DNA of 64,000 nucleotides from an uncultured bacterium (GCA_963759805.1 CAVXAT010000002.1:64001-128000); one strand, 5' to 3'; shown: positions 33,433 through 64,000, numbered from the stretch's first letter. Notes: a model not told the origin generated them from the letters alone. Numbers and translations are program-made.

Positions 33433-34596
33433 TTAAAGCAGCCGACCTAGCATTTTCAAATAAAGTCGTGGCATAAAATCCTGTAAAATCTTTGTAACTT
33501 TTTGATAATCTTCCGTACTAATCTCGGCTTTGGTCTCATGAGATGTTCCTGACTTGAGTTTTTGAGTTAAATCACCGTTCTCATCAAGTGAAATGTTTGG
33601 GATTTTCCAGTACCCACCCAAAATCTCAATTTTGGGAACACAATTATCAAAACATAAAATAAAAATCAATCTCATCGTTGGCTCATATAGTTTTTCGCCA
33701 ACCTGAATAATTTTTGAACCTACAAATTCCTGAACAAGACATAAGTCATTTTTATCATCCGCCCAAGATTTAAAGCGAGGATTGATATTTTGGGGTCTCT
33801 TTTTACTGCTATATAATCGTAATGTATATTTCAAAGTTTTTGCCAATTCCTCTTTTGAAACAATAAAAACCCCTTTTCCCATTGTTCCGCAAGCAGGTTT
33901 TATAACATAATAATCGCATTTAAATTCTTCTATAATCTCTTTTGCAGATTTTTGGGCATAACCGGAAACATCACACATATCTAATCGTTTGAGGATTTTA
34001 AATTTCGGACAATATTTACCAAATTCATCGTCATTTAAAATATTTACAGTATTAATCTTACTGTTGACATAAAATGCCGTGGCCAAGTCCCAAATTAAAA
34101 CATTCGGATATTTTTCCCTAAATATTCTAACACTATCATCCATAAAACTTGTACATATAATTGCTTTATAATTTGAAATTTTATAGGGATCTTTAACTGG
34201 TCCATCTTTAACCAGTGCTTTAAATTTACTGCTCTGTTCCAGCTTTTTCAACGACGGTAAAATGGCACCACCACACTTAATTAATGATTCAGTGGCCCTC
34301 ATCTCATCAAATTCGTTTGGTATATAAAAACCACCCACATGCCAAATTGGTAAATTAAATTGCTTTAAATAATTCCAATATTTATCCCAATAAAATCTAT
34401 TCATTCCCTTGAATGCAGAACGGCGACCTTCACCAAATTCACAAATTTTGAAATTTTGTCCATCAAATTTAAAATCAACGATACAAAATGAAATGTCTGC
34501 ACAAATTTGATCACCAAAATACGGAACACGACAGTAAACATTAAAAAAACAGGTAAGTCCCCCTATCAAATTTAATAACAACTTAACGTTTGGCAC
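33433..34596 (-). CDS. Signal-peptide-bearing, probably circularly permuted ATP-grasp enzyme
   Basis: N-terminal VDFKFDGQNFKICEFG, later YVIKPACGTMGKGV and LVQEFV; paralog of 39664..40914. Confidence 0.65.
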   Translation of the reverse strand: MPNVKLLLNLIGGLTCFFNVYCRVPYFGDQICADISFCIVDFKFDGQNFKICEFGEGRRSAFKGMNRFYWDKYWNYLKQFNLPIWHVGGFYIPNEFDEMRATESLIKCGGAILPSLKKLEQSSKFKALVKDGPVKDPYKISNYKAIICTSFMDDSVRIFREKYPNVLIWDLATAFYVNSKINTVNILNDDEFGKYCPKFKILKRLDMCDVSGYAQKSAKEIIEEFKCDYYVIKPACGTMGKGVFIVSKEELAKTLKYTLRLYSSKKRPQNINPRFKSWADDKNDLCLVQEFVGSKIIQVGEKLYEPTMRLIFILCFDNCVPKIEILGGYWKIPNISLDENGDLTQKLKSGTSHETKAEISTEDYQKVTKILQDFMPRLYLKMLGRLL

Positions 34597-34610
34597 GACC
34601 TACACCCCTT

Positions 34611-35576
34611 TTATTTTTTTGATTTCAACAACGGATTTCCTTTTAACGGTTGATACTTTTTCATGGAACAAACAACCCGCAATATCTTTTTTTGAAGCTC
34701 TGTATCTACCTTAAAATCGTTCAATCCTGTCGCCCTATCAGCAACATATAAAATATCCGAAATAAACATATGCCTAAACCCGGACATTTCGAGCATTGGA
34801 TACACCATTGCATAATCACTACCCGTTTCAACAAAATCACCCTTATACATCAAATCTTCGCGCTTAATTTTTTTAAATAACCAGGCATAGTAGGATCTAA
34901 GCCCGGATGAATTCCAACCAAATTCTCTAAACTGATTTCTCTTAATAACATCATCAGGATATGCCTTTTGTGGTCGAATCATATTCTGTGGCCAGCTCAG
35001 CAAACTACCATATGTCATCCAAATATTTGGGTCCTGATAAATTTTGTTTAACAATGCCAAAACGTGATCATTCGCCCAGTAATCATCACCGTCGCAGGAT
35101 GCAATTATATCAAAATCATCACACATATAAACTGCATTGTATATATTGGCCATGGCTTTACGTCGCTCTGTATTCTTTATCAATATTACACGATGCTCTT
35201 GGTTTTTCTCTTTGATATATTTTTCGACCAAATCTCCGGTTCCATCAGGCGATGCATCATCAATATAAATTACATTATAGTTATCATATTTCTGCATAAA
35301 AATTGAATCGAGATTTCTTTTATAACGTGTACTGTTATTGTATGATGGAATAATAACAACAAAATGCTTTTCTTCGCTTGTTTTGAGCTCTTTTAACTTA
35401 TCCCAAAGGACATTATACACAGAAAGATCTACAACCCCATTTTTCATCGGCGCAGGAATGTATCTCTTTGAAGAACTAGTTTTTTTACATGTAACACGAT
35501 GTCCGGTATCATACGCAAAAGCTTCAAAACCAATAAATATTAAACATATAAGTAAAATAATCGATTTTTTTTTCAT
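34611..35576 (-). CDS. Glycosyltransferase family 2 with a signal peptide
   Basis: MKKKSIILLICLIFIGFEAFA; VVIIPSYNN, IDDASPDGT and DGDD. Confidence 0.88.
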   Translation of the reverse strand: MKKKSIILLICLIFIGFEAFAYDTGHRVTCKKTSSSKRYIPAPMKNGVVDLSVYNVLWDKLKELKTSEEKHFVVIIPSYNNSTRYKRNLDSIFMQKYDNYNVIYIDDASPDGTGDLVEKYIKEKNQEHRVILIKNTERRKAMANIYNAVYMCDDFDIIASCDGDDYWANDHVLALLNKIYQDPNIWMTYGSLLSWPQNMIRPQKAYPDDVIKRNQFREFGWNSSGLRSYYAWLFKKIKREDLMYKGDFVETGSDYAMVYPMLEMSGFRHMFISDILYVADRATGLNDFKVDTELQKKILRVVCSMKKYQPLKGNPLLKSKK

Positions 35577-35697
35577 AGCAACAACACTCCTTTTTTTACT
35601 ATTGAAAAACATATATTAATAACTTATCATAAACTTATTCAAAGGGAAGATTTTTTAGGAAGAAATGCTTACTCGCAAAATCTTAAAGGAGAATATA

Positions 35698-36966
35698 ATG
35701 TTTAAGTACATGGCACTGTTTGTTTTTTCGGTGCTTTGCTTACCATATCCTCATTGTATATCTAAAAGTATATCAAAAACACATGAATCGTTTAAATACT
35801 TTGATTTTGGATATGATAGGGAAATAGATAAACAAAGTAATATTAATATTTTGTTAGCTCGATTTCGTAAAGCTGATTGCGGAGTTCAGCATCATATTTT
35901 TGCCTTGTATAAGCTACTGCTTGATGAAGGAATAAAAGTAAATATCGTAGTCATACAAAATACATCCCTGCAAAAAAGATTATACAACGCAAGACTTCCA
36001 CATTTTGCAATCAGTGAAAACCCCAAGGATGAATTTAATCATTTTTATTCTGCAACTAGCAAAATTTGTAAGCAAACAAAGGCAAATATTATTCATATTA
36101 ATGGTGCTAATTTAGAATATAGAGTTGCTCAAGCAGTTGCAAAAGATTTAAATCTAGCAATAATTCAACAACATCATGACTACAAAGAACCAAATTTAAA
36201 TATATGTAAAAATATTGATGCACTAATATTGGTTAGCCCAGAATTGACAATTCGTTTACCCCAAAAAGATATCTATAAAAATATCAATGTTAAATTTATA
36301 GTTTTTTTCCCACCATTATGCAATGAAGAAAAATTTTTGAATTTCAAACCAATGTACTCCAAAAAAGATTTTTTTAAAGAAAAATTTGGAATTGATATCA
36401 AAAAATCACCAATTTTATGCACCGTCGCAAATTTTTATTATTGTAAAAATCATGAAACCCTTTTCAAGGCCATTCATAATTTAATTTTTAAATATAAAAA
36501 TGAAGTACAACTTGTCCTTGCCGGAACGGGAACAAGTAAAAGAATCACACAACTAAAGAAACTTTGTATCGATCTGAAAATAGATTCCAATGTTTATTTT
36601 CTTAATTTTGTTGAAGATATTCCAGAACTTTTATATCACAGTGACATAAAAATTTTGCCTAGCATTGGAGAAGCATTTTCAATTGCAATAATAGAAGCAT
36701 CTTTGATGAAAAAACCAATAATTCTTTCAAAAACGGCAGGATCGGCTAACCTATTAATCAAAGACATGGAAACAGGCCTTTTATGCGATCCATATGATGC
36801 TGAAGATATAGCAGCACAAATTAATAAAATTTTGAACAATAAAGATTTGGCATTGAAACTTTCAGAAAATGTTTATAGCTTTGTCGTTAAAAATTTTTCA
36901 AGAAAAAACATAGGTCAAATCTATATTAATTTGTATGAAAAAGTTCTTAACAATTCCCGCAAATAA
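35698..36966 (+). CDS. Glycosyltransferase family 4 (GT-B) with a signal peptide
   Basis: KNHETL and ILPSIGEAFSIAIIEA (EX7E); hydrophobic N-terminus. Confidence 0.88.
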   Translation: MFKYMALFVFSVLCLPYPHCISKSISKTHESFKYFDFGYDREIDKQSNINILLARFRKADCGVQHHIFALYKLLLDEGIKVNIVVIQNTSLQKRLYNARLPHFAISENPKDEFNHFYSATSKICKQTKANIIHINGANLEYRVAQAVAKDLNLAIIQQHHDYKEPNLNICKNIDALILVSPELTIRLPQKDIYKNINVKFIVFFPPLCNEEKFLNFKPMYSKKDFFKEKFGIDIKKSPILCTVANFYYCKNHETLFKAIHNLIFKYKNEVQLVLAGTGTSKRITQLKKLCIDLKIDSNVYFLNFVEDIPELLYHSDIKILPSIGEAFSIAIIEASLMKKPIILSKTAGSANLLIKDMETGLLCDPYDAEDIAAQINKILNNKDLALKLSENVYSFVVKNFSRKNIGQIYINLYEKVLNNSRK

Positions 36967-36985: not shown

Positions 36986-37840
36986 TTATTCCAAATCACT
37001 TTTCAATAAAGGCTTATATTGCGGTAGTTTTTTAATTTTTGAAGAAACATTCTTTGCTGTGTTAATAGATGCCTTATTATTTCTAAGCTTACGCCAATAA
37101 CTATTTGAGTTATCGGTATTGTAAACATACAGTATTTTGTTTATAAATTTTGAATGGAAACCGGACATTTCAAGCATAGGAAACATAATTGCCACATCAC
37201 CACAAACTCGAACAAATTTACCATCAAAGATCAAGTCCTCTATCTTAATTCTTTTATATAACCATGCATAAAAAGTACGCAAATGTGAGGTAACCCATTT
37301 ATATGATCTAATTTTATTTTTACTTATGATATCTTTTGGAAGGAATTCACTATTACCGGACTTTCCGCCCGGGTAGGTCATAAATCGCCCGTAAGTTATC
37401 CAAACACTCGAATCCAAATAAACTTTATTTAAATATTCAAGAACATCATCTCCCGCAAGCCAATCATCACCATCAACAATCAAGACTATCTCATCATCAT
37501 CAAGTGAATGAACGGCCCTATAAATATTCTCATGCGCACCAACATTAATTTTATTCTTAACAAGCCTAAATTTAGATTTTAATTCAGAATTGTTTTCTAG
37601 ATACGCTTGGATATAATCAGACATCCCATCATCTGAACAATCATCATAGTAAACTACTCTAAAATTTTTATAGGTCTGGCAGGCAATTGAATCTAAATAC
37701 TTTTGAACATATTTAACATTATTAAAGGAAGCAGTCACAACCGCAAATCGTTTTCCTACAAACTGTTTTGATAGATCTGGTTTTGAAAAACAGTTATTAA
37801 AACTCACAAACAACAAACTCAGTACTAAAACTTTCATCAT
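36986..37840 (-). CDS. Glycosyltransferase family 2 with a signal peptide
   Basis: MMKVLVLSLLFVSFNNCFS; YDDCSDDG and VDGDDWLA. Confidence 0.88.
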   Translation of the reverse strand: MMKVLVLSLLFVSFNNCFSKPDLSKQFVGKRFAVVTASFNNVKYVQKYLDSIACQTYKNFRVVYYDDCSDDGMSDYIQAYLENNSELKSKFRLVKNKINVGAHENIYRAVHSLDDDEIVLIVDGDDWLAGDDVLEYLNKVYLDSSVWITYGRFMTYPGGKSGNSEFLPKDIISKNKIRSYKWVTSHLRTFYAWLYKRIKIEDLIFDGKFVRVCGDVAIMFPMLEMSGFHSKFINKILYVYNTDNSNSYWRKLRNNKASINTAKNVSSKIKKLPQYKPLLKSDLE

Positions 37841-37848: not shown

Positions 37849-39180
37849 CTAACTTCTTTTATATTCAGATTTTTCAATAATGCTACCGTTTTTTTTAGAC
37901 TCAATAGGCCTAGCCGCAATAACATTTTTATGCTCAATTACTTGCTTGTATAAATCCAAATAATGGCTTGATACTTTTTCAATAGACAAGTTATTCAAAA
38001 CAAATTCATAAGCATTTTCTCCAAGACTCTTTGCAAATCTAGGATCATTAATAAGCCTTTTTATCTGTAATGCGATGTCCTTGAATTTTTGGGGATCACA
38101 CAAAAGTCCCGATTTCTCGTGCTCTATAATCAATCCAGCCGTACCAGCAGTTCGAGAAAGAACTATTGGTTTTTTCATCAATGCAGCTTCAACAATAGCA
38201 ATGGAAAAAGATTCGCCCCAACTAGGCAAAACTTTTATATCAGAATGGAATAATAGCTCCGGGATATCACCAACATATCCAACAAAATAAACATTTTCTG
38301 CTATTTTCAATTTTTTACACAGTGCCTTATATTTTTCAACGCTTCTAGCTGGACCGGACCCAGCCAATACAACCTGAACAGGCATTTTTTCAACATAAAT
38401 TAACTCGTGAATAGCTTCAAGAAAAGTTTGATGATTCTTACAATAATAAAAATTAGCTATCATGCATATTACAGGACAATTTTTAATTTTGATTTTAAGT
38501 TTTTGCTCAAAAAACTCAGACCTTGAATATTTAGGACAAAATTTCAAAAACTTTTCATTGTCACAAATTGGCGGAATAAACTTTATGATACCTGGATTAA
38601 TAGCCCCATTTTCCTTTTTATTTTGCAAATCAGCAGTTAAGGCAGGACTCGATAAAATCAATGCATCAATATTGCTACATAAATTAAAATCAAAAACTTT
38701 GTAAGAATGATATTGTTGAACAATCATTAAATTAAATTTTTTTGCGAGAGCCTGCGCAATTTTTAGTTCAAAATCAAATCCATTAACATGAATTATTTTT
38801 ATGCCGAAGTTATCGCAAATTTTTGCTACACTGCTTGTATAAAATTTTAACTCTTTACTTGAAGTCCCTCCTGAAATAGCAAAGTGTGGAAGCTTGGCAT
38901 CAAGCAAGCGTTTTTGCAATTTTGTCCCCTTTGCAACAACAATATGAACATCTATTCCCATTTCATATAATTTTTTATAAAGAGTAAAAACATGATGCTG
39001 GACCCCGGTTTCAATTTTATGAAATCTAACTAAAAGAATTGGCACAATTTTTTTATTCACAGTTCGAATAACTCGCTTAGAACCAAAAGAAAAATACTCA
39101 AACCTACCGCTCTTTTCTTGCGCCAAACAGTTTTGAAAATAAAATAAAGAGAACATTAAAACAAAAGCCTGTATATTCAT
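37849..39180 (-). CDS. Glycosyltransferase family 4 with a signal peptide
   Basis: MNIQAFVLMFSLFYFQNCLA; VLPSWGESFSIAIVEA. Confidence 0.88.
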   Translation of the reverse strand: MNIQAFVLMFSLFYFQNCLAQEKSGRFEYFSFGSKRVIRTVNKKIVPILLVRFHKIETGVQHHVFTLYKKLYEMGIDVHIVVAKGTKLQKRLLDAKLPHFAISGGTSSKELKFYTSSVAKICDNFGIKIIHVNGFDFELKIAQALAKKFNLMIVQQYHSYKVFDFNLCSNIDALILSSPALTADLQNKKENGAINPGIIKFIPPICDNEKFLKFCPKYSRSEFFEQKLKIKIKNCPVICMIANFYYCKNHQTFLEAIHELIYVEKMPVQVVLAGSGPARSVEKYKALCKKLKIAENVYFVGYVGDIPELLFHSDIKVLPSWGESFSIAIVEAALMKKPIVLSRTAGTAGLIIEHEKSGLLCDPQKFKDIALQIKRLINDPRFAKSLGENAYEFVLNNLSIEKVSSHYLDLYKQVIEHKNVIAARPIESKKNGSIIEKSEYKRS

Positions 39181-39663: not shown

Positions 39664-40914
39664 TTGATGAAGTATTTTTTTATCTTTGCCATGACCTCAT
39701 GCTTCGCCTTAAATGCTACCACCATTCCACAAAGGTTTGACGACATATCAAATCTATCCAACAAACTGTTTTTATCCGTTCTTGATCAAACAATTACAAT
39801 TAAGTCCAATTCGTATGCCAACCTACCTCCAAGTCTCTCGTTCTTTTCTGCTGATGCTAAATTTGATGGAGAACGCCTTAAATTTTGCGAACTGGGAAAT
39901 GGGCTGTACGGGGTGATTTACCCCGTCTATGGGCTTCTAGATGAAGAAAAAGCCATTCTATACCCACCATACTGGGAGTTTTTATGGCTTTATACATCCC
40001 AATTTAATATCCCAGTTTGGTGTATAACTTGCTACAAAACAAATATGGCATACAAAACTCTGCAACGACTTGATGGAAAAATATTTAACAACATCGAGTC
40101 CTTCGAAAAATATTTAGAAACAAATTACCCTAAAGAAAAATTAATAACAGAAAAACCTAAGTCCATCGAATCGCATTTAGGAATTCTTGCTTATAACGGA
40201 CCCAGAATTGAGAATAGTAAATTAGAAGAGTTTAAAGCAAGACACCCTGGAATACTTTTCATAAACGATTCTCCGGCACTCTACCAACGCCGTAAAGATC
40301 AAATTCACAAAATTTTTGATGATGAATTTTTGAGCCAATTCAGGCCTCGCTGGGGAGTTTACCCTGCAAAATACAGCACAAAACTTGTCGCGCAAATCAA
40401 ACATGAAATTAAAAGCAAATTCTATATCATCAAGCCACTAGTAGGACGACAGTCACGAGGAATTACACTTGTTGATGAAAAGGATTTGGATTCAACACTA
40501 AAAACTATATTGAAAAAACCAATCAAGAATTACAGAAACAACAAGAAAAAGGGCTCCTCTTTCGATTGGAAAGACTACGAATATGACAAATTCATTGTTG
40601 AGGAATTCGTTGAATCAAAACATATGTTAAAAAATGGGCAACCCCATGATCCAACCCTGCGACTTGGTTTTATAATCAGCCAAAATAATGGGGAAATAAG
40701 CGTTAATGTAATTAATGCCTTCTGGAAATTTCCACTCAAATCCTTAACTGACAATTGTGAGCTAACTGAAAAACATGTAACCAGATCCTTAATTGGCATA
40801 AAAGAACCGGCATTAAATACAGATGCGAAAGATCTGAAAAAAATACGAGAAATTTTAAACACTATGCTACCAAAATTGTATGAAAAATATTTAATCTCAG
40901 GCGAAGGGAGATAA
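39664..40914 (+). CDS. Signal-peptide-bearing, probably circularly permuted ATP-grasp enzyme
   Basis: MKYFFIFAMTSCFALNA; ADAKFDGERLKFCELG, YIIKPLVGRQSRGI and IVEEFV. Confidence 0.65.
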   Translation: MMKYFFIFAMTSCFALNATTIPQRFDDISNLSNKLFLSVLDQTITIKSNSYANLPPSLSFFSADAKFDGERLKFCELGNGLYGVIYPVYGLLDEEKAILYPPYWEFLWLYTSQFNIPVWCITCYKTNMAYKTLQRLDGKIFNNIESFEKYLETNYPKEKLITEKPKSIESHLGILAYNGPRIENSKLEEFKARHPGILFINDSPALYQRRKDQIHKIFDDEFLSQFRPRWGVYPAKYSTKLVAQIKHEIKSKFYIIKPLVGRQSRGITLVDEKDLDSTLKTILKKPIKNYRNNKKKGSSFDWKDYEYDKFIVEEFVESKHMLKNGQPHDPTLRLGFIISQNNGEISVNVINAFWKFPLKSLTDNCELTEKHVTRSLIGIKEPALNTDAKDLKKIREILNTMLPKLYEKYLISGEGR

Positions 40915-40916: not shown

Positions 40917-42340
40917 ATGGCTAAAAAAACATTAAACATCATTTTTTTGTTCTGTGGGCATCAGTAAGTTTTTGCAATACTTTGTTACATCCGGCTGATA
41001 ATATCTCTTTAAATAAAATAGCTGTTATTGGCGCCGGATACGTAGGGTTAGTAACCGGAGCATGTCTGGCAGAAAAGGGTTTTCCCGTCATTATAGTTGA
41101 AAACAATCTTGCAAAAATTGAAGCTTTATTGAACGGAAAAGTTCCATTTTACGAACCAAAACTAGATAAACTCGTTAAAGACAATATCGATAATAAAAGA
41201 ATTAGCTTTGTAAACAGTATAAAAGAGGCATTTGAACTAAAGCCAAATGTTATTTTTTCATGTGTTGGCACACCTCCCAATGAGAATGGCTCCGCCGATC
41301 TTTCTTATGTTTTCCAAGTCGCTACAGATATAGGAAACAATATGTCTGAGTACTGCTTAATTATAAATAAATCAACAGTTCCGGTTGGAACCTGCGAGAA
41401 AGTTAAAAATATTATTAATACACAACTCAAAAATCGCAGGGGTCTCGATTGATTTTGATGTCGCATCCAATCCAGAATTTTTAAAACAAGGCGATGCCGT
41501 TAGCGACTTCTTTTTTCCGGATAGAATTGTAATTGGTGTTGAAAATAAAAGAGCCGAAGAAATTTTACGTCAAATTTACTCGCCATTTATAATAAATTCC
41601 AACCAATTATTGGTAATGGACATCCCATCTGCCGAACTTACCAAATATGCATCGAATGCTATGCTTGCTACAAGAATAAGTTTTATGAACGAACTTGCAC
41701 TGCTTGCAGACAAAGTTGGTGCAGATATTAATCAGGTCAAACTTGGAATGTCAAAAGATAAAAGAATTGGATCTTATTTCCTCAATGCTGGCATTGGATA
41801 TGGCGGAAGTTGTTTTCCAAAAGATGTTAAAGCTTTGGTGGCAACAGGACTTGAATATGGCCAACCAATGACAATAATCCAAGCAGTAGAAGATGTAAAC
41901 AATAATCAGAGATTAATCTTTGCTCAAGAAATATTAGATTTTTATGGAACAGAAATATCAAATAAAAACATTGGAATTTGGGGGCTTTCATTCAAGCCGG
42001 AAACAGATGATTTACGCTGTGCTCCATCAATCGATATTGTTAGTTTATTACTTGAGCATGGATGCCAAAATCACAGCTTACGACCCGGCTGCACAAAATA
42101 ATTTCAAAGCTCTTTTTGGTAATAAAATAAATTATGCACAAACTTCACAGGAAATTCTTGAACAATGCGACTGCTTGGTTATTTTAACTGAATGGAAAGA
42201 GTTTCTTAAAATATAAGCCATCTGACTTTAATTTATTAAAAGAAAAAGTCGTTTTTGATGGTCGCAACTGCTTTGATCCGGCAGAAATGTTGGATGCTGG
42301 GATCAAATATTTTTGTATAGGCAGAAATTTAAGTTGTTAA
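40917..42340 (+). pseudogene. ugd: UDP-glucose 6-dehydrogenase, split by about 4 frameshifts (possibly sequencing errors), with a signal-like N-terminus
   Basis: IAVIGAGYVG, KSTVPVGT, SNPEFL, KYASNAMLATRISFMNE, GYGGSCFPKD and GLSFKPETDD across ORFs 40982, 41385 and 41944. Confidence 0.85.
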
Positions 42341-43275
42341 TTATATTTAACCAAATCACTTTCCTGCAAAGGAGAATATGGCGCTATCTCTTTGCGAATA
42401 TGCCAGTCCACAATAGCATGTATTTCATTTGATTTTTTTGACTTATTTTTTGATTTGTTTAAGTTGTAACCATTGCGCGCATTTGTTCTGCTAGACTTAG
42501 CCCTTTTTCGACGGTTATAAAGATTGTGCCAATAACTGATTTGATTATCACAATTATAAATATATAAAACTTCTGGAATAAATCTTGAATGAAAGCCCGC
42601 CATTTCAAGCATAGGAAGCATAATTGCCACATCACCACAAACAGGTACAAACTTACCTTCAAACATTATATCTTGCATTTTTATTCGCTTGTACAACCAT
42701 GCATAAAAAGTTCTCAAATGCGAAGAAACCCAGGTATATGATCTAAAAGAATTAGCTTTTATAATTTCCGCAGGAATTTCCCTACAACATCCAACTTTAT
42801 TAGATGGATATCTTTGAAGTTGTCCATAAGTAATCCAAACATCCGGATCTGAATAAACTTTATTCAAAATTTCCAATACATCATCCCTGGCCAACCAATC
42901 ATCTCCATCTACAATCAAAATTATTTCCTCGTTCTTACATGAATGAATTGCATGATATATATTCTCATGCCCTCCAATTCTTGCTTTGTTTCTAATAATG
43001 CAAAACTTATCACCCAGATCAAATTTTTTCTTATACGCTTCAACAAATTCTCCAGTTCCGTCCTCAGAGCAATCATCATAATAAATCACGCGAAATGTAA
43101 ATTCCCTTTCATCACATTTTTGAGAAAAAATAGATTTTAAATATTTATCTACATAATCAATATTATTATATGATGCTGTAACAATAACAAATTTTTTGGG
43201 TTGTAATCCATTTTTCGCATGGACAGATCCACAATTAAAACATGCCAAAAAAATTAATATTATTATGTAAAACAT
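42337..43275 (-). CDS. Glycosyltransferase family 2 with a signal peptide
   Basis: MFYIIILIFLACFNCGSVHA; YDDCSEDGT and VDGDDWLA. Confidence 0.88.
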   Translation of the reverse strand: MFYIIILIFLACFNCGSVHAKNGLQPKKFVIVTASYNNIDYVDKYLKSIFSQKCDEREFTFRVIYYDDCSEDGTGEFVEAYKKKFDLGDKFCIIRNKARIGGHENIYHAIHSCKNEEIILIVDGDDWLARDDVLEILNKVYSDPDVWITYGQLQRYPSNKVGCCREIPAEIIKANSFRSYTWVSSHLRTFYAWLYKRIKMQDIMFEGKFVPVCGDVAIMLPMLEMAGFHSRFIPEVLYIYNCDNQISYWHNLYNRRKRAKSSRTNARNGYNLNKSKNKSKKSNEIHAIVDWHIRKEIAPYSPLQESDLVKYN

Positions 43276-44326: not shown

Positions 44327-44375
44327 GATTCAAACCTTTCTTATATTGCATTTTCATGTTTTTTCTGTAGCTCTT

Positions 44376-55264: not shown

Positions 55265-56413
55265 ATGATGTTATCTAAATATTATTTATTTTTAGTGTAT
55301 ATTTTAGCATCAATTTTTTTTATAAATACACAGGCATTGGATAATCAAGCAATAGAGCCCAAAAAGGCTCTGATCATTGGAATAACAGGACAAGACGGTA
55401 CTTATCTTTCTGAATTTTTACTGGGCAAAGGATATTGCGTTCATGGCATGGTTCGCAGATCATCGTCAACCAATACAGGAAGGATAGACCATTTATGCCA
55501 AAATCAAGAGCTGCAAGCCAAAAAACTTTTCACCTTGCACTATGGTGACATTACTGATGCCAGTAACGTACTCAGCATAGTTCAAGCAGTTCAGCCTGAT
55601 GAAATATACAATCTTGCAGCTCAAAGCCATGTACAAATATCATTCGAAATGCCAATTTACACTGCGCAAGTTGATGGACTGGGAACATTAAACATTTTAG
55701 AGGCCATTCGATGCGCCGGTTTGACAAAAAAAACAAAATTTTATCAAGCATCAACAAGTGAACTGTTCGGCAAAGTACAGGAGATACCACAAAAGGAAAC
55801 AACCCCATTTTATCCACGTTCTCCATATGCTGCGGCCAAGCTATTCAGTTACTGGATTTCTATAAACTATCGTGAAGCCTATGGCATATTTGCTTGCAAT
55901 GGAATACTGTTTAACCATGAATCACCAATTCGCGGTGAAAACTTTGTTACCAAGAAAATTACACACGCAGCGGTCAGGATAAAATATGGATTGCAAGATG
56001 TTTTATCGTTAGGAAATCTAGATTCCAAGAGAGATTGGGGCCATGCACGAGATTATGTTGAAGCCATGTGGCTTATCTTGCAACAGCCTCAACCTGATGA
56101 TTTTGTCATAGCTACAGGAGAGACGCATTCTGTAAGAGAATTTGTTGATCTTACTTTCAAAGAAATTGGCATTGATATTGAATGGACGGGCCAGGGATTA
56201 GATGAAAAAGGCATTGATAAAAATACCGGCAAAACACTTGTCGTAGTTGATAAAAAATTTTTCCGACCAACAGAAGTTGATTTTTTACTTGGTGATCCAA
56301 CTAAAGCCAAAAATGTACTTGGCTGGAAACCACGCATTACATTTAAAAAACTAGTAAGCGAAATGATAGAAAGCGAATTAAAAGGCATGAACAGTTGGAG
56401 AGCCGCTAAGTAA
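55265..56413 (+). CDS. gmd: GDP-mannose 4,6-dehydratase with a signal-peptide-like extension
   Basis: [37 protein letters not shown] and RDWGHA. Confidence 0.95.
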
Positions 56414-56498: not shown

Positions 56499-57440
56499 TT
56501 ATCTTAAAATGAATGTCGGTTCGTATGGCATATGAGGTGATTTATTTTCAATTTTATACAAAGGCTTGATATCAATTTTATATCCTCCATTAAATACATC
56601 TAACATTTTATCTGCAGAAAAACCTTCCATATGCAAATTACTGTAATCAGTTTGACTATTTAATGGGATATTAATTATCTTGGATTTTTTAAAACAAAGA
56701 CCTGTCCATTCCAGATTTACTTTTTTAGCCCAAGCACTCTCCAACCTGTTGGGAGAATAATAATTTAACTGACTGAAATTTTCTGCTATATCAGCTTTTC
56801 TATAAACGGTCATATCGACAGTATTTGGATAGCTCCAATCGCCACCTGTTCCGTCTTTAAATTTCCAAGCAATAATCCCATTTTCATATTCTTTAAAATT
56901 GGGCAATCTTGGATTTTTAAATGGAATAGTGTAATTTTCGGTTGTATTTTTGCCTAGCCTTAGATAAAAGCCGTAAGAATCATGTTTTTCGAGAGCATTT
57001 GCGCAAGCGTTCAAGTCAATTCGATCTTTAACAATTATATCATCTACAACAAATGCAATGTACTTGCTTTTGGATTTTTTTAAAAAAATATCAAGAAGTA
57101 GTGGCTTAAAATGCTCCCTCGGCTTATTTGAATCCTGAATATACATTTTAACATTAGGGAAATTTTTATTTACCAATTCATATGCTTTTTTAAATTTTTC
57201 GTCACTTACTCGATAAAGAACAAAAATATTCTGATCCCCTGTTACATAAGATTTTATTGATTCAAGACATGCATATAATTGCAATGGCCGATCATAAGAA
57301 AAAACTATTAAATCTACACTAAGATCAGAATTTACACTCTTTTTTAAACTTTGTTCTTTAGCAATAACAGTATGAAATCCAAATAAAAATACACCAAAGA
57401 CAAAGCAACTTAATACACACAGCTTGCTAGACATACACAT
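56499..57440 (-). CDS. Putative GT-A glycosyltransferase-like protein with a signal peptide
   Basis: IVFSYDRPLQLYACLESI and FVVDD; paralog of the N-domain of 49840..51518. Confidence 0.6.
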   Translation of the reverse strand: MCMSSKLCVLSCFVFGVFLFGFHTVIAKEQSLKKSVNSDLSVDLIVFSYDRPLQLYACLESIKSYVTGDQNIFVLYRVSDEKFKKAYELVNKNFPNVKMYIQDSNKPREHFKPLLLDIFLKKSKSKYIAFVVDDIIVKDRIDLNACANALEKHDSYGFYLRLGKNTTENYTIPFKNPRLPNFKEYENGIIAWKFKDGTGGDWSYPNTVDMTVYRKADIAENFSQLNYYSPNRLESAWAKKVNLEWTGLCFKKSKIINIPLNSQTDYSNLHMEGFSADKMLDVFNGGYKIDIKPLYKIENKSPHMPYEPTFILR

Positions 57441-57492: not shown

Positions 57493-58386
57493 TTATCCAA
57501 GATATGAATGACAAGATACATAATGATACCCTTTATTCTTAAACAATTCCAAATTTTGCAACTTAGTATTAATCCATTTTAGTTTTCTGATTTCACATTG
57601 ATTTGTTCTTAGGAGCGTAAAATTGAAATAAAGTTCATACTCTGAAGCACATGCCCCTTCAACATCGTTTAAATCAATACAATTGCAAAAGGCTTCCCAA
57701 AAACTTATTTTAAATTTTTTTTCTACTATTAAAAACATATCCTCCAAAATACAACGCTGCACAAGCATATGATGTGAAATTCCAGAGTATTCTGAGAATA
57801 CTCTTTTAAATCCGGGTATTAATTTTTGCCCATGATTAAAATATGGAGGATGAAACTCTTTTCCGGGATTGAAAAAACCTGCCCCTGTATTCTTATCACA
57901 AAACATTACAGGATTTAAAAAAATAGTATCTGCATCAAGAAGAAGAATATTTGAAGAGATATTTGGAATAACAAAAGGGGAATAGAGTTTTAATAGTTGC
58001 TGATAAATCCATCCAATTCGATCTAATTTGTAATTTTCGTCTTTAAAAAGTTGCCTAAGTAGATCCTTTTTAGAAAATGGAAATTTTGCCTCATCAAACC
58101 ATTCAGCCTTGGCGGTTAATTTTTCCGGTGAAATAACAATAACACGTCTGATATTTGAAGCGTTTTTCTTGATGCCTTCTATGCACATATCCAGTGTTCT
58201 AGCATCCTTGACTATGCATACAATTACGACGTCAATGGGGTCTTTATTAAATTTGTAAGCAACTTTTTGTATTGGTAAATAAGGGGGATTTTGTGTAAGA
58301 GCTTGAGTTTTATTTTTCGCAAAGCTACTAGCAAAACTAAACAACAAAAACCATATGTATGCAAAAAAAACAGTGTTTTTTTTCAT
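57493..58386 (-). CDS. Nucleotide-diphospho-sugar transferase-like protein (DUF6492-like) with a signal peptide
   Basis: MKKNTVFFAYIWFLLFSFASSFA; GWIYQQLLKL, LDADT, ISHHM and SEYELY. Confidence 0.65.
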   Translation of the reverse strand: MKKNTVFFAYIWFLLFSFASSFAKNKTQALTQNPPYLPIQKVAYKFNKDPIDVVIVCIVKDARTLDMCIEGIKKNASNIRRVIVISPEKLTAKAEWFDEAKFPFSKKDLLRQLFKDENYKLDRIGWIYQQLLKLYSPFVIPNISSNILLLDADTIFLNPVMFCDKNTGAGFFNPGKEFHPPYFNHGQKLIPGFKRVFSEYSGISHHMLVQRCILEDMFLIVEKKFKISFWEAFCNCIDLNDVEGACASEYELYFNFTLLRTNQCEIRKLKWINTKLQNLELFKNKGYHYVSCHSYLG

Positions 58387-59184
58387 CACTCTATCCTTAT
58401 CGAAAAAGACCCCGTCCAAAAAACAATTTATCAATGCCAAAATATTAAGTAAACAAAAATTATAAAATATAACCAAGCAAAAAACATAAAAATCAATATA
58501 TAAATTCTCTTGACTTTTATATTTAAAATCATAAATAATTATCCTATTGATCAAAGAAATTAGAGAAAAGGATATGAGTGAGAAACAAATACTTCCTTAA
58601 ACAATTTGCTATATTTTTTTTAATTCCATTAGCAACACAGTCAATGACAGCAACAAATACAAATAATATGGTAATAAATACCAAATTAATTCAATTTAAT
58701 GAATCAATAGACAATGCATATAATGCATCCATAATTGAGTATGGCAGTGGGTACCTTTTAATTTTTCGACATGACACTGAAAATAAATTATGTGCATGTG
58801 GGTACAAACAACCACAAATTAAAATGGTGTGCCTAAATAAAAATTTCGAACAAGTAACTCCTATTAAAAATGTTGAAATTAAAAAAGCAACCTCAAAAAC
58901 AAATTTGACAGAGAAGCTTATTCCATTTACACCAGAAGATGCACGAATACACTCTTGTCGTAGACAGTTGTTTTTAACTTATAATAGCGATGTTGATGTA
59001 CATCAACATACTACGAAGAGTAAAACTCCATGGAGAAGACAGATGTTTAAAGGGAAATTCGACCCCAAAAAAGCTTACCTTTCAGATATTGAACAAATTC
59101 CATCAAATAATATTCCATTAACACTTGTTGAAAAAAATTGGACCCCATTTGAATATCCTGAAGGATCCGGGGGGCTTTATTATA

Positions 59185-60186
59185 ACGCCAGTTCGATAAT
59201 TAGTTAAGGCTTGGAATTTCAGCAAAAAACCCCACACCTATCGCAGGTTTGTGTTGATGAAAAGAATAGGCTGAAATTGCAGCAAAAACATTCGTGAAAA
59301 AATTTTTAACACATCTATGTCTAGTATGTTCGATTTTAAAGGTATTTTTCAGGATATTGTTAACAGATTCAATGATGTTTCGTTTTTTTAGAAAAAGTTT
59401 TTCAAAAAAGATCATGAGCTTGTTTTTCATACCCTTTTTAAGCTTTGTTATAAGCTTGAGACCACGCCTAAAAAGTTTTTCAAAAAGAGGTTGTGATATA
59501 TAACCACGATCGCCAAAAAGCCAACCCCAAAGATTTTTTGTAACTTTAGAAATAACTGATTCGTTACGGTCATCAGTATTTCCTGGGGTAATCCAAAATG
59601 ACAAAATTTCACCGAAATGATTAATCACAAGATGGAGTTTGAACCCATAAAACCAGCCCATTGATGATTTTCCGCGCTGAGCAATACCCTTAAAAACTTT
59701 GTGTGAGTAAATTCGAAGATTGTGGCACACAACCAATTTTGTGGAATCAATAAAGGCAATACCGCGCATATTTTTACTGTTGCGACTTGCAGCAAATAAT
59801 GCCAATGGCTCTGCAGCCTCATGCATTAACTCAGTAAAGCGAGTGTAGCTAACCAAAGCCCCAAAGGCTGTTTTCAATTCTTTGCAAACATGGTCTTTGT
59901 AATATCTTTTGAATGTGTGATATCCAGAATAATGAAAATATACGCAAATCGTAAGAATATCGCTTAGAGTCATGCCTCGTGGGCGTCCTGCAGCATTTAA
60001 CGTGTTATTCTTTACTCTCTTTTCTTTAACATATTTTTCATATTGCTTGCAAAAATCATCAATTTCGCAAAAAATAGTTGTTAAGAACATGTTTAGCCTT
60101 TCTCTTTTTTTTTGAGGGTTTCATTTTTCTCAATTTAAACGAGAAAGGCTTTTTTTAAAGAACTTTTTTAATTATCGAACTGGCGT
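59185..60186 (-). mobile_element. IS982-family insertion sequence (1002 bp)
   Basis: Perfect 18-bp inverted repeats ACGCCAGTTCGATAATTA; 7-bp target duplication TATTATA at 59178-59184 and 60187-60193. Confidence 0.93.
59200..60090 (-). CDS. IS982-family DDE transposase
   Basis: IDDFC, SYTRF, FIDST, GWFYGFKLHL, GDRGYIS and R.IIESVN..LK...IEHTRHR. Confidence 0.93.
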   Translation of the reverse strand: MFLTTIFCEIDDFCKQYEKYVKEKRVKNNTLNAAGRPRGMTLSDILTICVYFHYSGYHTFKRYYKDHVCKELKTAFGALVSYTRFTELMHEAAEPLALFAASRNSKNMRGIAFIDSTKLVVCHNLRIYSHKVFKGIAQRGKSSMGWFYGFKLHLVINHFGEILSFWITPGNTDDRNESVISKVTKNLWGWLFGDRGYISQPLFEKLFRRGLKLITKLKKGMKNKLMIFFEKLFLKKRNIIESVNNILKNTFKIEHTRHRCVKNFFTNVFAAISAYSFHQHKPAIGVGFFAEIPSLN

Positions 60187-60688
60187 TATTATATATACAT
60201 GACATGCCCTCATATAATTATAGATCTATCTAAATCATGTAAAATAATAAAAAATGAATTAAATTTAAAAACTTTATGGGACAGTGAAATATTTGGAAAC
60301 ATTAGAGGTGGAACACCAGCTCGGTTGGTTGATGGAGTTTATCTCACATTTTTTCATTCATGGAAATTTCATACAAAAACAAAAGAATATCGATACTTCA
60401 TGGGAGCATATATTTTTGAAGCAGCCCCACCATTCAAAATTCTCGCTATTACGCCAGAACCAATTAAAAATGACGAATTATGTACAGCCAAACACAGAGT
60501 TAAAAATTTACATGTTATATTTCCTGGTGGATTTGTTGTAGAAAAGAAAGATAGGCAAACTTTATTGCATGTTGCTTGTGGAGAAAATGATTCATCAATT
60601 CGCATCATTTCAATAGATAAAGATAAATTGTGGGAAAATATGAAAAAATGTTTTTCATAAAAGTATATTATTTAAAAAAAGGGTAAAA

Positions 60689-61600
60689 ATGACAATAAAA
60701 AATTGTTTCCTTGCACCTATTCTCTTGCAAACGTTGGTTTCAATTCAAATAAATGCTAGCTCAAAAAAAATTGTACCTCCAAAAGCAGTAGAAGCCAAAC
60801 AAGAAGCCAAAAAACCTGATACAAGCAACATTTTTGACCTTAAAAATTTTGAACGCCTAGCAAACATAACGATATCTTCTGATATAAAAAAATATTATTC
60901 AGATATAGATAAAGTTGATGGATGGTTTGATAAAAGACATATTATAATACTCCTCTTAATAAATTTATTTCAAACAAAAAATAGCATTAATGGAAATTTG
61001 GGTGAAATTGGTGTTTGGCAAGGCAAATCTTTTATTCCATTAATGCTACTTGCTAAAAACAATGAATATGCTGCTGCTATAGACTGCTTTGAATCATACG
61101 AATTCAATCGCGACAATTCCGGAGGAGGTTCTTGTAGCTTCGAAATTTTTAATAAAAATGTAGAAAAGTATTGTTCAAAACATAGTAATCTTAGAGTTAT
61201 AAAAGGTGATTCCTCTAGCTTTTCAGCAAAAGATTATCTCAGTGTAATGGAAAATGGGAAAGGCTTTAGAATATTTAGCATTGATGGTTGCCATGAAGCT
61301 CCCTCTACCATTAAAGACATGGAAAATGCATTTAACTGCCTGGCTGATGGAGGCGTTATAATCATTGATGACTATTTTCACACTTGTTGGCCAGGAGTTT
61401 CTGAAGGCCTTAATTTTTTTATGAATAAAAATGTTAATTGTTTGAAACCATTTTTAATTGCATGGAACAAAATATTTTTTGCACAACCAGCCTTTGCAAA
61501 AAAATATTTTGACTTGATTAAAGAATTTTTGATTCCCAATGATGTAAGAATAAAAAAATTCTTTGGCGTAGACACGTTAATATATGATAAGCAAGGATAA
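60689..61600 (+). CDS. Class I SAM-dependent methyltransferase (Methyltransf_24-like) with a signal peptide
   Basis: GEIGVWQGKS, SIDGCH, GGVIIIDDY and WPGV. Confidence 0.8.
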   Translation: MTIKNCFLAPILLQTLVSIQINASSKKIVPPKAVEAKQEAKKPDTSNIFDLKNFERLANITISSDIKKYYSDIDKVDGWFDKRHIIILLLINLFQTKNSINGNLGEIGVWQGKSFIPLMLLAKNNEYAAAIDCFESYEFNRDNSGGGSCSFEIFNKNVEKYCSKHSNLRVIKGDSSSFSAKDYLSVMENGKGFRIFSIDGCHEAPSTIKDMENAFNCLADGGVIIIDDYFHTCWPGVSEGLNFFMNKNVNCLKPFLIAWNKIFFAQPAFAKKYFDLIKEFLIPNDVRIKKFFGVDTLIYDKQG

Positions 61601-61605: not shown

Positions 61606-62532
61606 ATGAATTATAAAATACTTTTTTTATTTTTTTCACTAAGCATTAATCCCATATCAGCTAACGTTGAAACCCATCTAAAAAAAATAGTCGGAAAATC
61701 TGGAAATCACAAAATAAAAAATATAGATTTTATCTACATGATAAATTTGGATAAACGACCAGAAAAATTTGCCCGTTGCAAAGAACAACTATCTAAGTAC
61801 AATATTGAGCCATTTAGATTTTCTGCAGTTAATGGATGGGAATTACCAATGGAAACCATTAACGATGTTGGCGTAAAATACGAAACATGGATGGCGAAAG
61901 ATCTATGGGGAACTTATTATTCACCAGATAAAGGAGAGTTTCAGCATGAAATTATGAACGTCAAAGGAAGAACTTATTTCTGTCATTGTACGGTTCGCGG
62001 GCCAATTGGAATAAACCTAAGTCATCTTTCGATTCTTAAAGATGCATTGGATTCAAAATATAATACGATATGGGTAATGGAAGATGATATTCAGATTATT
62101 AAGGATCCACATAAAATTTCATCTTTAATTGATAAATTAGATAATCTTGTAGGTAAAAAAGGATGGGATATACTGTTTACAGACAAGGATGCAAAGGATC
62201 GAAATGGAAACTATGTTGTATGTTTAAGTTATGCCAAAAGACCAAACTTTTCCCCTTTGCATCCTGAACGATTTGCGGTAAGAAAACAAATTGATTCTGA
62301 TTTTATAAAAATTGGAGCACGTTATGGAGCACATTCAATGATAATTAGGAAGTCTGGAATACAAAAGCTTTTAAAATTTTTTTGTAAGTATTCCCTATTT
62401 CTTCCATATGATATGGATTTTACTATGCCTGACGACATACACTTGTATACCGTTACAGATGATATTGTATCAAACCAGCCTGGAGCACTTTCAGACAACG
62501 GATCTCCAGGATATTTGAAAAAAGAAAAATAA
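61606..62532 (+). CDS. Glycosyltransferase family 25 with a signal peptide
   Basis: MNYKILFLFFSLSINPISA; YMINLDKRPEK, RFSAVNG, LSH and VMEDD. Confidence 0.8.
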   Translation: MNYKILFLFFSLSINPISANVETHLKKIVGKSGNHKIKNIDFIYMINLDKRPEKFARCKEQLSKYNIEPFRFSAVNGWELPMETINDVGVKYETWMAKDLWGTYYSPDKGEFQHEIMNVKGRTYFCHCTVRGPIGINLSHLSILKDALDSKYNTIWVMEDDIQIIKDPHKISSLIDKLDNLVGKKGWDILFTDKDAKDRNGNYVVCLSYAKRPNFSPLHPERFAVRKQIDSDFIKIGARYGAHSMIIRKSGIQKLLKFFCKYSLFLPYDMDFTMPDDIHLYTVTDDIVSNQPGALSDNGSPGYLKKEK

Positions 62533-62577
62533 TTACTAAATAATTCTGGTATTTTTATCAAAAAAAAAGCGTTAGTT

Positions 62578-63627
62578 ATGCATATAAAAATATTTTTTAT
62601 ATGTGGCTTGTTATTCTACGTAAATTTGTCAGCCACTACCAAAAAAATAATTTACTTAGTTCCACCTTATTCTTCAGGAAAAGAGAATCTACTTTTTAAT
62701 CCAAATGAAAGGGATGACTGCAATAAGCCATTTATCGAATTAAGAAATGCAGCAGAAAAACTTGGTCATTCTTTAAAAGTAACAAAAGACATTACAAACT
62801 CAACCAATGTAGCCGCCATTGTCGTTATTACAACAAAACATTTAAATCCTGAATTTTTCAGGCAACTAGAAAAATACCCTTTAGAAAAACGTATTCTTTT
62901 TTTATACGAATCTCCATTGCTTGAGGGATGGGCGCATATTCCAGATATTACAAAGCATTTTGGAAAAACGTTTACCATGCTTGATAATTTTGTTGATAAC
63001 AAAACTTATTTTAAATTCTACATGCCACAACCATACCTAAGTATGCTTAAAAATATTCCAGATTTTGCTAAAAAGAAATTTTGTACATTAATCGCAGGAA
63101 ACAAAAACTGGAACAACGAGAAAAACCGTAACGAATTGTACTCTGAACGTAAAAAGACAATAAAATTCTTTGAATCTCTTCACCAAAATGAATTTGACTT
63201 ATATGGCATAGGCTGGAATACAAAAGAATACCCATCTTATAAGGGGAATATTACAAATAAAGCACAAATTCTGCAACAATACAAATTTTGCATCTGCTAT
63301 GAAAATATTCAAAACGTTTTTGGATATGTTTCTGAAAAGATTTTCGATTGCATGGCGGCAGGATGTGTTCCTGTTTATTGGGGAGCATCAAACATCCCAG
63401 ATTATGTTCCTGCTAACTGTTTTATTGACCGCCGTAAATTTAAGTCGCATGACGATTTATATCTATTTTTAAAAAGCATGGATAAGAAGACATATAACAA
63501 ATATCTAGAAAACATAAAAAGGTTCTTTAATTCTTCGCAGGCATCAAACTTTTCAATAGATAATTTCATAAAAATATTTTTTGCTGCAATCGATAGCTCC
63601 AAACAACAAGATCCTGGAAATGAATAA
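62578..63627 (+). CDS. Glycosyltransferase family 10 (alpha-1,3/4-fucosyltransferase-like) with a signal peptide
   Basis: YKFCICYEN....GYVSEKIFD...AGCVPVYWGA is the GT10 motif; N-terminus MHIKIFFICGLLFYVNLSA. Confidence 0.85.
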   Translation: MHIKIFFICGLLFYVNLSATTKKIIYLVPPYSSGKENLLFNPNERDDCNKPFIELRNAAEKLGHSLKVTKDITNSTNVAAIVVITTKHLNPEFFRQLEKYPLEKRILFLYESPLLEGWAHIPDITKHFGKTFTMLDNFVDNKTYFKFYMPQPYLSMLKNIPDFAKKKFCTLIAGNKNWNNEKNRNELYSERKKTIKFFESLHQNEFDLYGIGWNTKEYPSYKGNITNKAQILQQYKFCICYENIQNVFGYVSEKIFDCMAAGCVPVYWGASNIPDYVPANCFIDRRKFKSHDDLYLFLKSMDKKTYNKYLENIKRFFNSSQASNFSIDNFIKIFFAAIDSSKQQDPGNE

Positions 63628-63802
63628 ATAACAGCCCTTAATCCTGCAGCGAGCCCCTTTATCACGAAAAATTTTTAGCGGGAATTGCTTTTAATCCTGA
63701 GCATACTCTTTTGATTATTCCAAATATCTGTACATCCAAATTAATTTTCGTATAAGTTGTTATGTAGAGAAAGTGCAATCATTCTTTTATTAAGGGGGGA
63801 AT

Positions 63803-64000
63803 ATGAAGTTAGGATATCTGCTTGTAATTTTATTATTAACTTTTACAACTAAAACATTATATTGTACAAATAATCACTCTCTAAAAACACATCCACAAAT
63901 CTCTCGAAAGTTTAAACTGTTGACAACGCTTTACAATGAAAAAAACGAAAAAAGATTTTTAGAATTCGTAACATGTATTGAAAATAATTTAAAAAATACA
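63803..64000 (+). CDS. Partial gene running off the window, with a signal peptide
   Basis: ATG after AAGGGGG; open for 66 codons: MKLGYLLVILLLTFTTKTLYC...LLTTLYNEKNEKRFLEFVTCIENN. Confidence 0.65.
   Translation, partial: MKLGYLLVILLLTFTTKTLYCTNNHSLKTHPQISRKFKLLTTLYNEKNEKRFLEFVTCIENNLKNT

Follow-up and report, generated by a model that had tools for sequence, protein, structure and literature searches.

Bacterial nucleotide-sugar chemistry is, by the textbook rule, cytoplasmic, and steps past the inner membrane need lipid-linked donors. The Wzx/Wzy, ATP-binding cassette (ABC) transporter and GT-C pathways keep their Leloir enzymes in the cytoplasm and use lipid-linked donors for the periplasmic steps. 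Leloir glycosylation takes place in a lumen in the eukaryotic endoplasmic reticulum (ER) and Golgi, by type II anchored enzymes fed by SLC35 transporters, with Gmd and Fcl remaining cytosolic. Here we analyse a stretch of 64,000 nucleotides from an uncultured bacterium (GCA_963759805.1, CAVXAT010000002.1:64001-128000; hereafter the window), which carries, from position 33433 onwards, a glycosylation locus whose enzymes nearly all begin with a signal-peptide-like leader and are probably exported.

According to the accessible text of PMC4829429, the inclusion glycogen of Chlamydia trachomatis is made by a bacterial sugar pathway that operates outside the cell on host UDP-glucose. The locus resembles that pathway in that, as its genes suggest, sugar enzymes that are normally cytoplasmic would use a nucleotide sugar of the host outside the bacterial cell. 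It differs from it in that C. trachomatis relies on type III secretion, has a single storage homopolymer as product and takes up its donor ready-made (PMC4829429), whereas the locus has Sec-type leaders and about ten transferase or modifier families, and the donor makers themselves are tagged (Gmd, Fcl and Ugd; in relatives also ManC and 3'-phosphoadenosine 5'-phosphosulfate (PAPS) synthase). There is also a likeness to the glycan clusters of the Megavirinae (PMC10117803) and to GMD A118R and GMER A295L of PBCV-1 (PMC9614988): in the accessible parts of these sources, giant-virus clusters of 6-33 genes combine donor synthesis, glycosyltransferases (GTs) and pyruvyl-, methyl- and sulfotransferases, in parasites of protists and on host metabolites. 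The viral GTs differ in being mostly predicted soluble proteins without signal peptides (same sources), as befits enzymes whose synthesis takes place in the cytosol of the host. By analogy, the locus system would resemble both the secreted C. trachomatis glycogen and the giant-virus clusters in its working and be a member of neither.

With the ER and Golgi the locus would share nucleotide-sugar transferases beyond a membrane, and it shares the families GT10 and GT25, joined in related loci by GT92-, STELLO- and RXYLT1-like families; unlike the N-terminal segments of Golgi enzymes, which are uncleaved anchors of about 20 residues followed by a stem, its leaders look cleavable, judged indirectly from cut-site conservation and core size. 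The Wzx/Wzy, ABC-transporter and GT-C pathways use the same enzyme families, and the genome holds a leaderless pathway of such kind elsewhere. Unlike Wzx/Wzy systems, the locus has no flippase, polymerase or initiating transferase and its Leloir transferases bear leaders; unlike ABC pathways (Wzm/Wzt, PglK), it has no linked ABC exporter; and unlike GT-C systems, its intact proteins have no membrane helix after the leader and its families depend on nucleotide sugars. In the literature searched (supplements and most subscription journals lay outside the search) we found no description of such an exported glycan system, and the accessible parts of PMC4378268, PMC12172432, PMC4776705, PMC6561590 and PMC3516806 do not mention exported GTs.

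Results

Leaders of the locus enzymes

The window corresponds to C2:64001-128000 of a 1.50-Mb genome (labelled G000; completeness 88.7%). Its small size, a TLC ATP/ADP translocase found by direct Pfam scan and many leader-bearing ankyrin proteins place the source genome, presumably, in the Babeliales (Babelota, also Dependentiae or TM6), a group whose members live in protists; ATP/ADP translocases occur across the phylum in the accessible text of PMC4776705. Leaders were called with our own hydrophobic-leader heuristic at a threshold of 2.0, the looser of two screens, run with controls. A leader was present in 21 of the 23 locus genes with intact 5' ends, the two misses scoring 1.85 and 1.99. 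At this threshold one call fell among 38 conventional sugar enzymes from other parts of the genome and one among 33 housekeeping proteins, in each case a false call made on an N-terminal strand; the screen also called 19/759 internal methionine positions, 362/1025 soluble open reading frames (ORFs) genome-wide and 79/377 shadow ORFs. Fisher tests gave a p of 4e-13 for the locus against the conventional sugar enzymes and of 2.5e-8 against the genome. An earlier note on this DNA had claimed that essentially every enzyme of the locus has an N-terminal signal peptide and had asked for a comparison with the genome-wide rate for cytoplasmic enzymes; the first agrees with these counts, and the second, now made, shows that the locus is enriched.

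The genome-wide rate was 35-44% depending on the threshold, and the accessible text of PMC6561590 gives a Phobius signal peptide for 44% of the coding sequences of Chromulinavorax destructans. As leaders are common across the phylum, a leader alone is unsurprising in this genome, and what matters is which proteins bear it. The screen recovered TolB, BamD, Pal, AmiC, DegP, TolC and a secretin. It marked 278 soluble proteins outside the locus, and among the 174 scanned the named ones were largely envelope proteins, proteases and ankyrins. Clear leaders on normally cytoplasmic enzymes outside the locus were seen in MetK, a thioredoxin reductase-thioredoxin fusion, a HAD phosphatase and a GNAT protein, while IS110, YebC, RNase HII, FabF, RfbF, GalE, MurD and glutamate racemase, some of them inspected, are likely false calls. 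The MetK (C1:309763-311001, L149), the only one found in the genome, and the thioredoxin fusion (L179:3031-4638) both have export-type leaders, which suggests S-adenosylmethionine (SAM) and NADPH chemistry beyond the cytoplasm.

Start sites and cut sites

For most genes Shine-Dalgarno (SD) pairing, scored with a generic anti-SD sequence, peaked at the leader start, and 4 of the 23 locus starts were weaker than -2. It reached -11.1 at the leader start of Fcl vs 0 at the next ATG, and -10.1 at that of Gmd vs 0 at the downstream GTG and TTG; several locus genes have no alternative start ahead of the domain. In most locus genes SD strength favours the leader starts over downstream ones.

The cut-site count at -3 and -1 was made for the GT25 family, in which 110 of 119 relatives have a leader. 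Among the 109 that could be anchored, position -1 is A, G or S in 102 and position -3 is L, V or I in 97, and +3/+4 are mostly acidic. In core length (p 0.78) and peak hydrophobicity (p 0.37) the locus leaders match 22 envelope or ankyrin proteins encoded in this genome. They follow the plan of proteins exported by Sec and cut by signal peptidase I, with a short basic n-region, a hydrophobic core and a polar c-region, and none of the 23 contains a lipobox. Of the two branches that the earlier note had left side by side, export or tethering to the membrane, export draws support from leader length, cut sites, starts, repeated gains and host-dependent carriers; a type II, Golgi-like tether is less apt, the cores being no longer than in the cleaved envelope proteins of this genome and the GT25 relatives keeping the -3/-1 pattern.

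Changes of leader state in relatives

Gmd was present at E<1e-100 in 35 of the 61 genomes searched and bears a leader in 10 of them (the N-termini of G001, G020 and G040 are not in this count). In a quick tree of 38 Gmd sequences, strongly supported branches need at least four changes of leader state, and in G017 and G004 a leader-bearing Gmd is sister to the leaderless Gmd of the same genome; one long-branch Gmd of G058 that is labelled as leaderless looks by eye as if it began with a leader. A leader is present in 24/120 Fcl relatives (22 by script, 2 by eye), with 0/15 among those from named organisms outside the Babelota and Chlamydiae. Leaderless Fcl proteins start six residues before the domain in 75/94 cases and 14 of 22 leader-bearing ones keep a methionine at about that place, which makes it likely that normal enzymes acquired the leaders as prefixes. 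Of the 27 ManC copies read, 5 have a leader (L187 in G019, L190 in G027, L084 in G058, L185 and L186), and G019 and G027 carry tandem leader and leaderless pairs.

Five genomes have only leader-bearing Gmd: three of them give no ManC match (86, 98 and 96% complete), one has a leader-bearing ManC and one a leaderless ManC, while a ManC match was obtained in each of the other 30 genomes that have Gmd at E<1e-100; these counts come from incomplete genomes, and related ones among them are not independent. The family of a locus GT2 occurs in 59/151 genomes of the order, and 32 of the 39 ORFs read have leaders by script. Intact all-leader clusters were found in G008, G038, G058 and G004. That of G008 (L077) includes a leader-bearing PAPS synthase (5690-7390), two leader-bearing sulfotransferases (4646-5653 and 11927-12673) and an acid phosphatase; a DUF1796-Fcl fusion lies at 13571-15520. 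L090 (G004:C4), with seven tandem GT25 genes, three propellers and several GT92 genes, nearly all with leaders, represents a local expansion. The leader-bearing glyco-enzyme system is thus a real, widespread and repeatedly evolved feature.

GT25 is rare among the relatives (3/61 genomes). Its loci in named genomes (n=36) are titled as Chlamydiae or their subgroups (20), Babeliales (1), unclassified (10) and other groups (5); one of these last five holds type III secretion-like genes by our own reading. All-leader clusters of the Chlamydiae contain GT11, GT10, GT92, GT25, methyl- and pyruvyltransferases, propellers and nucleotide-sugar enzymes, among them a leader-bearing GalE-like epimerase. 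At L056:5859-8038 an RmlB-like and an RmlD-like gene of a chlamydia form a pair, each with a leader, which may provide a UDP-rhamnose route as in giant viruses. Gmd occurs in 40 of 120 chlamydial genomes (G070 unscored), with a leader in 5 of the 29 read (4 by script, 1 by eye). One locus, titled Verrucomicrobia, has GT25, GT10 and Fcl without leaders. Lateral gene exchange between the Babelota and Chlamydiae lineages is likely.

A conventional pathway in the same genome

A second Gmd and Fcl pair, leaderless, lies on C8 in a conventional cluster with multi-pass GT-C-like proteins and a PglK-like transporter (C8:27624-73392); nonulosonate-type enzymes, read from translations, and an MBOAT-like gene are also present there. 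ManC, GalU, two phosphomutases, a WecA-like gene and LpxC, all leaderless, are found elsewhere in the genome, and the conventional leaderless genes are distributed over C8, C1 and C11; absence of ManC from the genome was thereby ruled out. Two glycan systems thus coexist, one conventional and one export-tagged.

As the earlier note had seen for the window, the locus and the DNA that adjoins it contain no Wzx, Wzy, ABC exporter or initiating transferase. The genome-wide search for wzx, wzy and wecA that it had advised returned one WecA-like gene and one PF13440 match below the cut-off, and no match to PF02397, PF01943 or PF04932 in this 88.7% complete genome. The Wzx-like candidate, on C1, gave no Pfam or NCBIfam match in a direct scan. 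The PglK-like gene belongs to the leaderless C8 cluster, two PF01061 matches stand beside other ABC ATPases on C1, and there is one EamA gene. A search for the nucleotide-sugar transporter PF04142, run without a positive control, gave 0/4. No collagen-like acceptors were present among 1236 ORFs; Ser/Thr/Pro/Ala-rich stretches occur in 16 proteins, of which 14 bear leaders and are candidate acceptors.

Anatomy of the locus

The locus comprises 28 glyco-genes and one IS982 element between 33433 and 66508 (window numbering), ending 2.5 kb past the window. It contains four GT2 (one fused to a GT-A-like domain), four GT4, GT10, GT25, two NodZ-like genes, two pyruvyltransferases, a methyltransferase, a DUF6492-like gene, two ATP-grasp-like genes, three propellers, Ugd, Fcl, Gmd and four GT-like genes without a family. 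Genes sit where the earlier note placed them and all five N-termini that it quoted are present; its extent is right for the window, but three further leader-bearing genes follow up to 66508. Pfam bears out its four GT2, four GT4 (one split), GT10, GT25, two PS_pyruv_trans, Methyltransf_24, Ugd, Fcl and Gmd. Its DUF6492 and ATP-grasp labels and its beta-propellers correspond to weak matches below the Pfam cut-off, the propellers to GH130, and its GT11-like label found no Pfam support.

The donor makers are Ugd (UDP-glucose 6-dehydrogenase; 40918..42340, +), broken by frameshifts, with its leader part, which begins at ATG 40918, in another frame than the rest of the gene, and leader-bearing Fcl and Gmd. 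Fcl (GDP-L-fucose synthase; 54215..55237, +) matches NF047922 with E 2e-129 and 431 bits, below the model cut-off of 500, has intact catalytic motifs and is 57-65% identical to many relatives, some of them named GDP-L-fucose synthase. Gmd (GDP-mannose 4,6-dehydratase; 55265..56413, +) exceeds the TIGR01472 cut-off (582 vs 415 bits) and has the Rossmann, Ser/Thr-Glu and YxxxK motifs.

Among the GT2 genes, (a) (34611..35576, -; PF00535) has its leader start at the second ATG, an SD of -8.2 and a DGDD motif; (b) (36986..37840, -), the member whose family was counted in the order, and (c) (42337..43275, -) have leaders; and (d) is fused to the GT-A-like domain (49840..51520, -; 5' end approximate), with the leader piece out of frame. 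The GT4 genes (a) (35698..36966, +; PF00534, SD -8.7), (b) (37849..39180, -) and (d) (51542..52834, -) bear leaders, and (c) (46084..47383, -) is in two pieces with the leader on the N-terminal one. Both groups were assigned by Pfam. The leader-bearing GT25 (61606..62532, +; Pfam) has mostly chlamydial closest relatives, and the leader-bearing GT10 fucosyltransferase (62578..63627, +; PF00852) has its motif. Catalytic motifs are intact in Gmd, Fcl, GT2, GT10 and GT25, and EX7E is present in three whole GT4 translations.

A putative NodZ-like fucosyltransferase (53132..54157, +) has a leader, an HxRG motif and a Thr/Pro/Lys-rich tail; it has no Pfam or PDB match itself, and the label, also from the earlier note, draws on that motif and on weak PF05830 matches of a relative and of its leader-bearing paralogue beyond the window (65510-66508), after which comes a gene read as ychF. 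A leader-bearing GT-like gene straddles the window end (63803..64000, +; gene end 64582) and has a leader-bearing paralogue at 64752-65513. A GT-A-like protein with a leader and a VDD motif (56499..57440, -) is found in 16/61 genomes; its single-sequence fold (56499-57356) was poor, with a pLDDT of 42. A broken putative transferase (47408..48640, -; 5' end approximate), the former GT11-like gene, has a leader-like piece upstream. PDB sequence searches gave nothing significant for the 56499-57440 family, the NodZ-like protein and ATP-grasp enzyme 2, and a viral scan with pyruvyltransferase 2 found no relative.

The modifying enzymes, all leader-bearing, include polysaccharide pyruvyltransferases 1 (44376..45278, -) and 2 (45265..46074, -), both PF04230, a SAM-dependent methyltransferase (60689..61600, +; PF13578 and PF05711) and a DUF6492-like protein (57493..58386, -; PF20102, E 0.002). 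ATP-grasp enzyme 1 (33433..34596, -; PF14397, E 0.002, below cut-off) has a leader scoring 1.85 and an SD of -7.3, and leader-bearing ATP-grasp-like enzyme 2 (39667..40914, +) has no Pfam match itself and a relative that matches PF14397 weakly. The three GH130/GT108-like propellers are all broken: propeller 1 (43284..44350, -), five-bladed, is frameshifted with a leader piece upstream, propeller 2 (48642..49800, -) has a partial leader, both with approximate 5' ends, and propeller 3 (58578..60660, +) has a leader and is split by the IS982 copy. The modelled intact chlamydial relative (pLDDT 77) is predicted to be five-bladed; its best Foldseek match in the PDB was 9fj8, a GH130 beta-1,2-mannoside phosphorylase (E 5e-11, TM-score 0.61), and Leishmania MPT-1, -2 and -4 matched more weakly (E 1e-8 to 8e-8). 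This model likens the propellers to GH130 and to the Leishmania GT108 enzymes in fold, and they differ from these in sharing only 11-19% identity.

The IS982-type element (59177..60195, -; transposase 59200-60090, PF13612) does not belong to the system; two copies 99.8-99.9% identical to it are present on C1, and one of these adjoins a leader-bearing SAM methyltransferase. Besides the split propeller, six genes are broken by frameshifts. The leader is wholly or partly in another frame than the body in Ugd, propellers 1 and 2, the former GT11-like gene and the GT-A-like/GT2 fusion, clearly so in three genes and less cleanly in the former GT11-like gene and propeller 2. The breaks frequently lie close to homopolymer runs, and the genome has a further split gene, read as secF; this points to assembly error for some of the breaks.

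To the left of the locus, a PQ-loop transporter (PF04193) is encoded at 30044-30673, 3 kb away, and the MnmA-like (23385-24665) and NurA (32087-33421) proteins contain odd in-frame insertions. At the start of the window an incomplete ORF (2-1219; no Pfam match) followed by a 181-residue ORF (3081-3626; weak Pfam match) gives the impression of a polymorphic toxin/immunity-like arrangement.

Discussion

We consider export of the locus enzymes probable overall. As to its purpose, we put forward, at about even strength, that the locus builds the cell's own fucosylated, pyruvylated and methylated glycan in the periplasm with exported, cleaved enzymes working on host nucleotides. Export by SecA/SecY and cleavage by LepB would yield soluble enzymes, and host ATP, GDP-mannose, UDP-glucose, phosphoenolpyruvate (PEP), methionine and NAD(P)H would pass the outer membrane. 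Exported Gmd and Fcl would then make GDP-fucose, Ugd UDP-glucuronic acid and exported MetK SAM, and the GT2, GT4, GT10, GT25 and NodZ-like transferases, propellers, pyruvyltransferases, methyltransferase and ATP-grasp ligases would extend and cap an acceptor, for which the candidates are exported proteins rich in Ser/Thr and, as WecA- and PglK-like genes are present, a lipid-linked primer that has been flipped. Because the ATP/ADP translocase sits in the inner membrane, host nucleotides presumably reach the periplasm already. Tagging Gmd, Fcl, Ugd, ManC, MetK, PAPS synthase and thioredoxin reductase for export would be sensible only if GDP-mannose or GTP, UDP-glucose, ATP and NAD(P)H lie beyond the inner membrane. 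We prefer the periplasm to the host cytosol because synthesis of SAM and PAPS would be redundant in the cytosol and useful where only raw metabolites arrive.

Several observations weigh against this proposal. We identified no porin that could let nucleotide sugars through. The genome has its own leaderless ManC, GalU and phosphomutases and so does not depend on host GDP-mannose. WecA-like and PglK-like genes and one weak Wzx-like gene are present outside the locus. The n-region of the locus leaders is less positive than that of the envelope and ankyrin proteins (1.2 vs 2.05, p 0.002), the early mature part that follows is more basic (+1.2 vs -0.5, p 0.005), and their charge difference is 0.04 vs 2.0 in other leader proteins. 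The methionine retained just before the domain of most leader-bearing Fcl allows a second, cytoplasmic start. In the GT2 family 7/39 members are leaderless by script, three of them cut by locus or contig ends and two with leaders by eye. In G038 (L082:11644-13791) a Wzx flippase is fused to this family within an otherwise leader-bearing cluster, and the fused GT2 would face the cytoplasm, since 11 clear helices and one weak one were counted. This fusion ties the GT2 family to a lipid-linked glycan, in that protein probably on the cytoplasmic face; it is evidence for a flipped primer, yet also the best evidence for membrane tethering. Seven of the 28 locus genes are broken. Finally, the vacuole lumen fits the raw-metabolite argument as well as the periplasm does, and the present data do not tell periplasm, vacuole and host cytosol apart.

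Of the other explanations, the one that survives best, although we think it rather unlikely, takes the enzymes by Sec and then by a type II secretion system (T2SS) or vesicles to the vacuole lumen or host cytosol, where they would build a matrix round the replication body or remodel host glycoconjugates, as in giant viruses and the chlamydial inclusion. Three secretins and one T2SS C subunit in the genome agree with it and keep a site beyond the periplasm possible. The T2SS is the sole secretion system given for Babela massiliensis, and C. destructans sits in the host cytoplasm and appears to release vesicles (accessible parts of PMC4378268 and PMC6561590). Two GT-like families are nearest to virus-rich Atlas clusters, which we regard as a lead only, and the cofactors are plentiful in the host cytosol; however, exported MetK, thioredoxin reductase, ManC and PAPS synthase would add little where the cytosol makes the same products.

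It is unlikely that the leaders are N-out tethers or poorly used signals, with catalysis on the cytoplasmic face from the cell's own donors and a lipid carrier flipped by PglK- or Wzx-like proteins. The weak charge asymmetry of the locus leaders, the Wzx-GT2 fusion with the leaderless GT2 members, the methionine kept in many leader-bearing Fcl, and the WecA-, PglK- and weak Wzx-like genes together with ManC and GalU speak for it. Homologues in relatives, however, have a normal N-in charge (difference 0.83-1.39; 1.39 vs 1.58), a conserved -3/-1 pattern is unexpected for an anchor, and polar c-regions and cores like those of cleaved envelope proteins also speak against one. In this genome SD pairing is weak or absent at the starts downstream in Gmd and Fcl, three genomes with only leader-bearing Gmd have no ManC match, and we see no clear reason for tethering MetK, Gmd or PAPS synthase.

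The broken genes, one of them interrupted by a recent IS982, the rarity of GT25 among the relatives and the high genome-wide leader rate could also be taken to mean that the leaders are a by-product of a lineage with 40% leader proteins and that the imported genes stored in the locus are falling into decay and provide no working exported pathway. We hold this to be highly unlikely, as catalytic motifs are intact, whole all-leader clusters exist in four relatives and in Chlamydiae, housekeeping and conventional sugar enzymes have not picked up leaders, and some breaks probably arose in assembly. The 21% of shadow ORFs giving leader calls and the four weak SD starts might indicate that AT-rich upstream DNA was wrongly read as leaders and that the true starts lie downstream; this is very improbable given the SD strength at most leader starts, the genes with no other start ahead of the domain and the leader kept in kind across the GT25 relatives.

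Returning to periplasmic synthesis and taking the relatives into account, we lean slightly towards a wider proposal, drawn from the genomes compared here: in Babelota and environmental Chlamydiae the periplasm or surrounding vacuole may have become a Golgi-like workshop through nucleotide exchange with the host cytosol, repeated recruitment of enzymes by a Sec leader (Gmd, Fcl, ManC, Ugd, MetK, PAPS synthase and thioredoxin reductase) and gene swaps across phyla. This would constitute an additional bacterial route, extracytoplasmic Leloir synthesis with local donor production.

If this is true, two phyla of intracellular parasites would break the rule that nucleotide-sugar chemistry is cytoplasmic, and they would offer a source of soluble, naturally exported GT10, GT25, GT2 and GT4 enzymes. 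Part of the unusually large secretome of the phylum (44% in C. destructans, accessible text of PMC6561590) would be explained. The periplasm of an energy parasite would be a metabolically active, host-fed compartment, and variable fucosylated or pyruvylated coats would be predicted, which may set host recognition.

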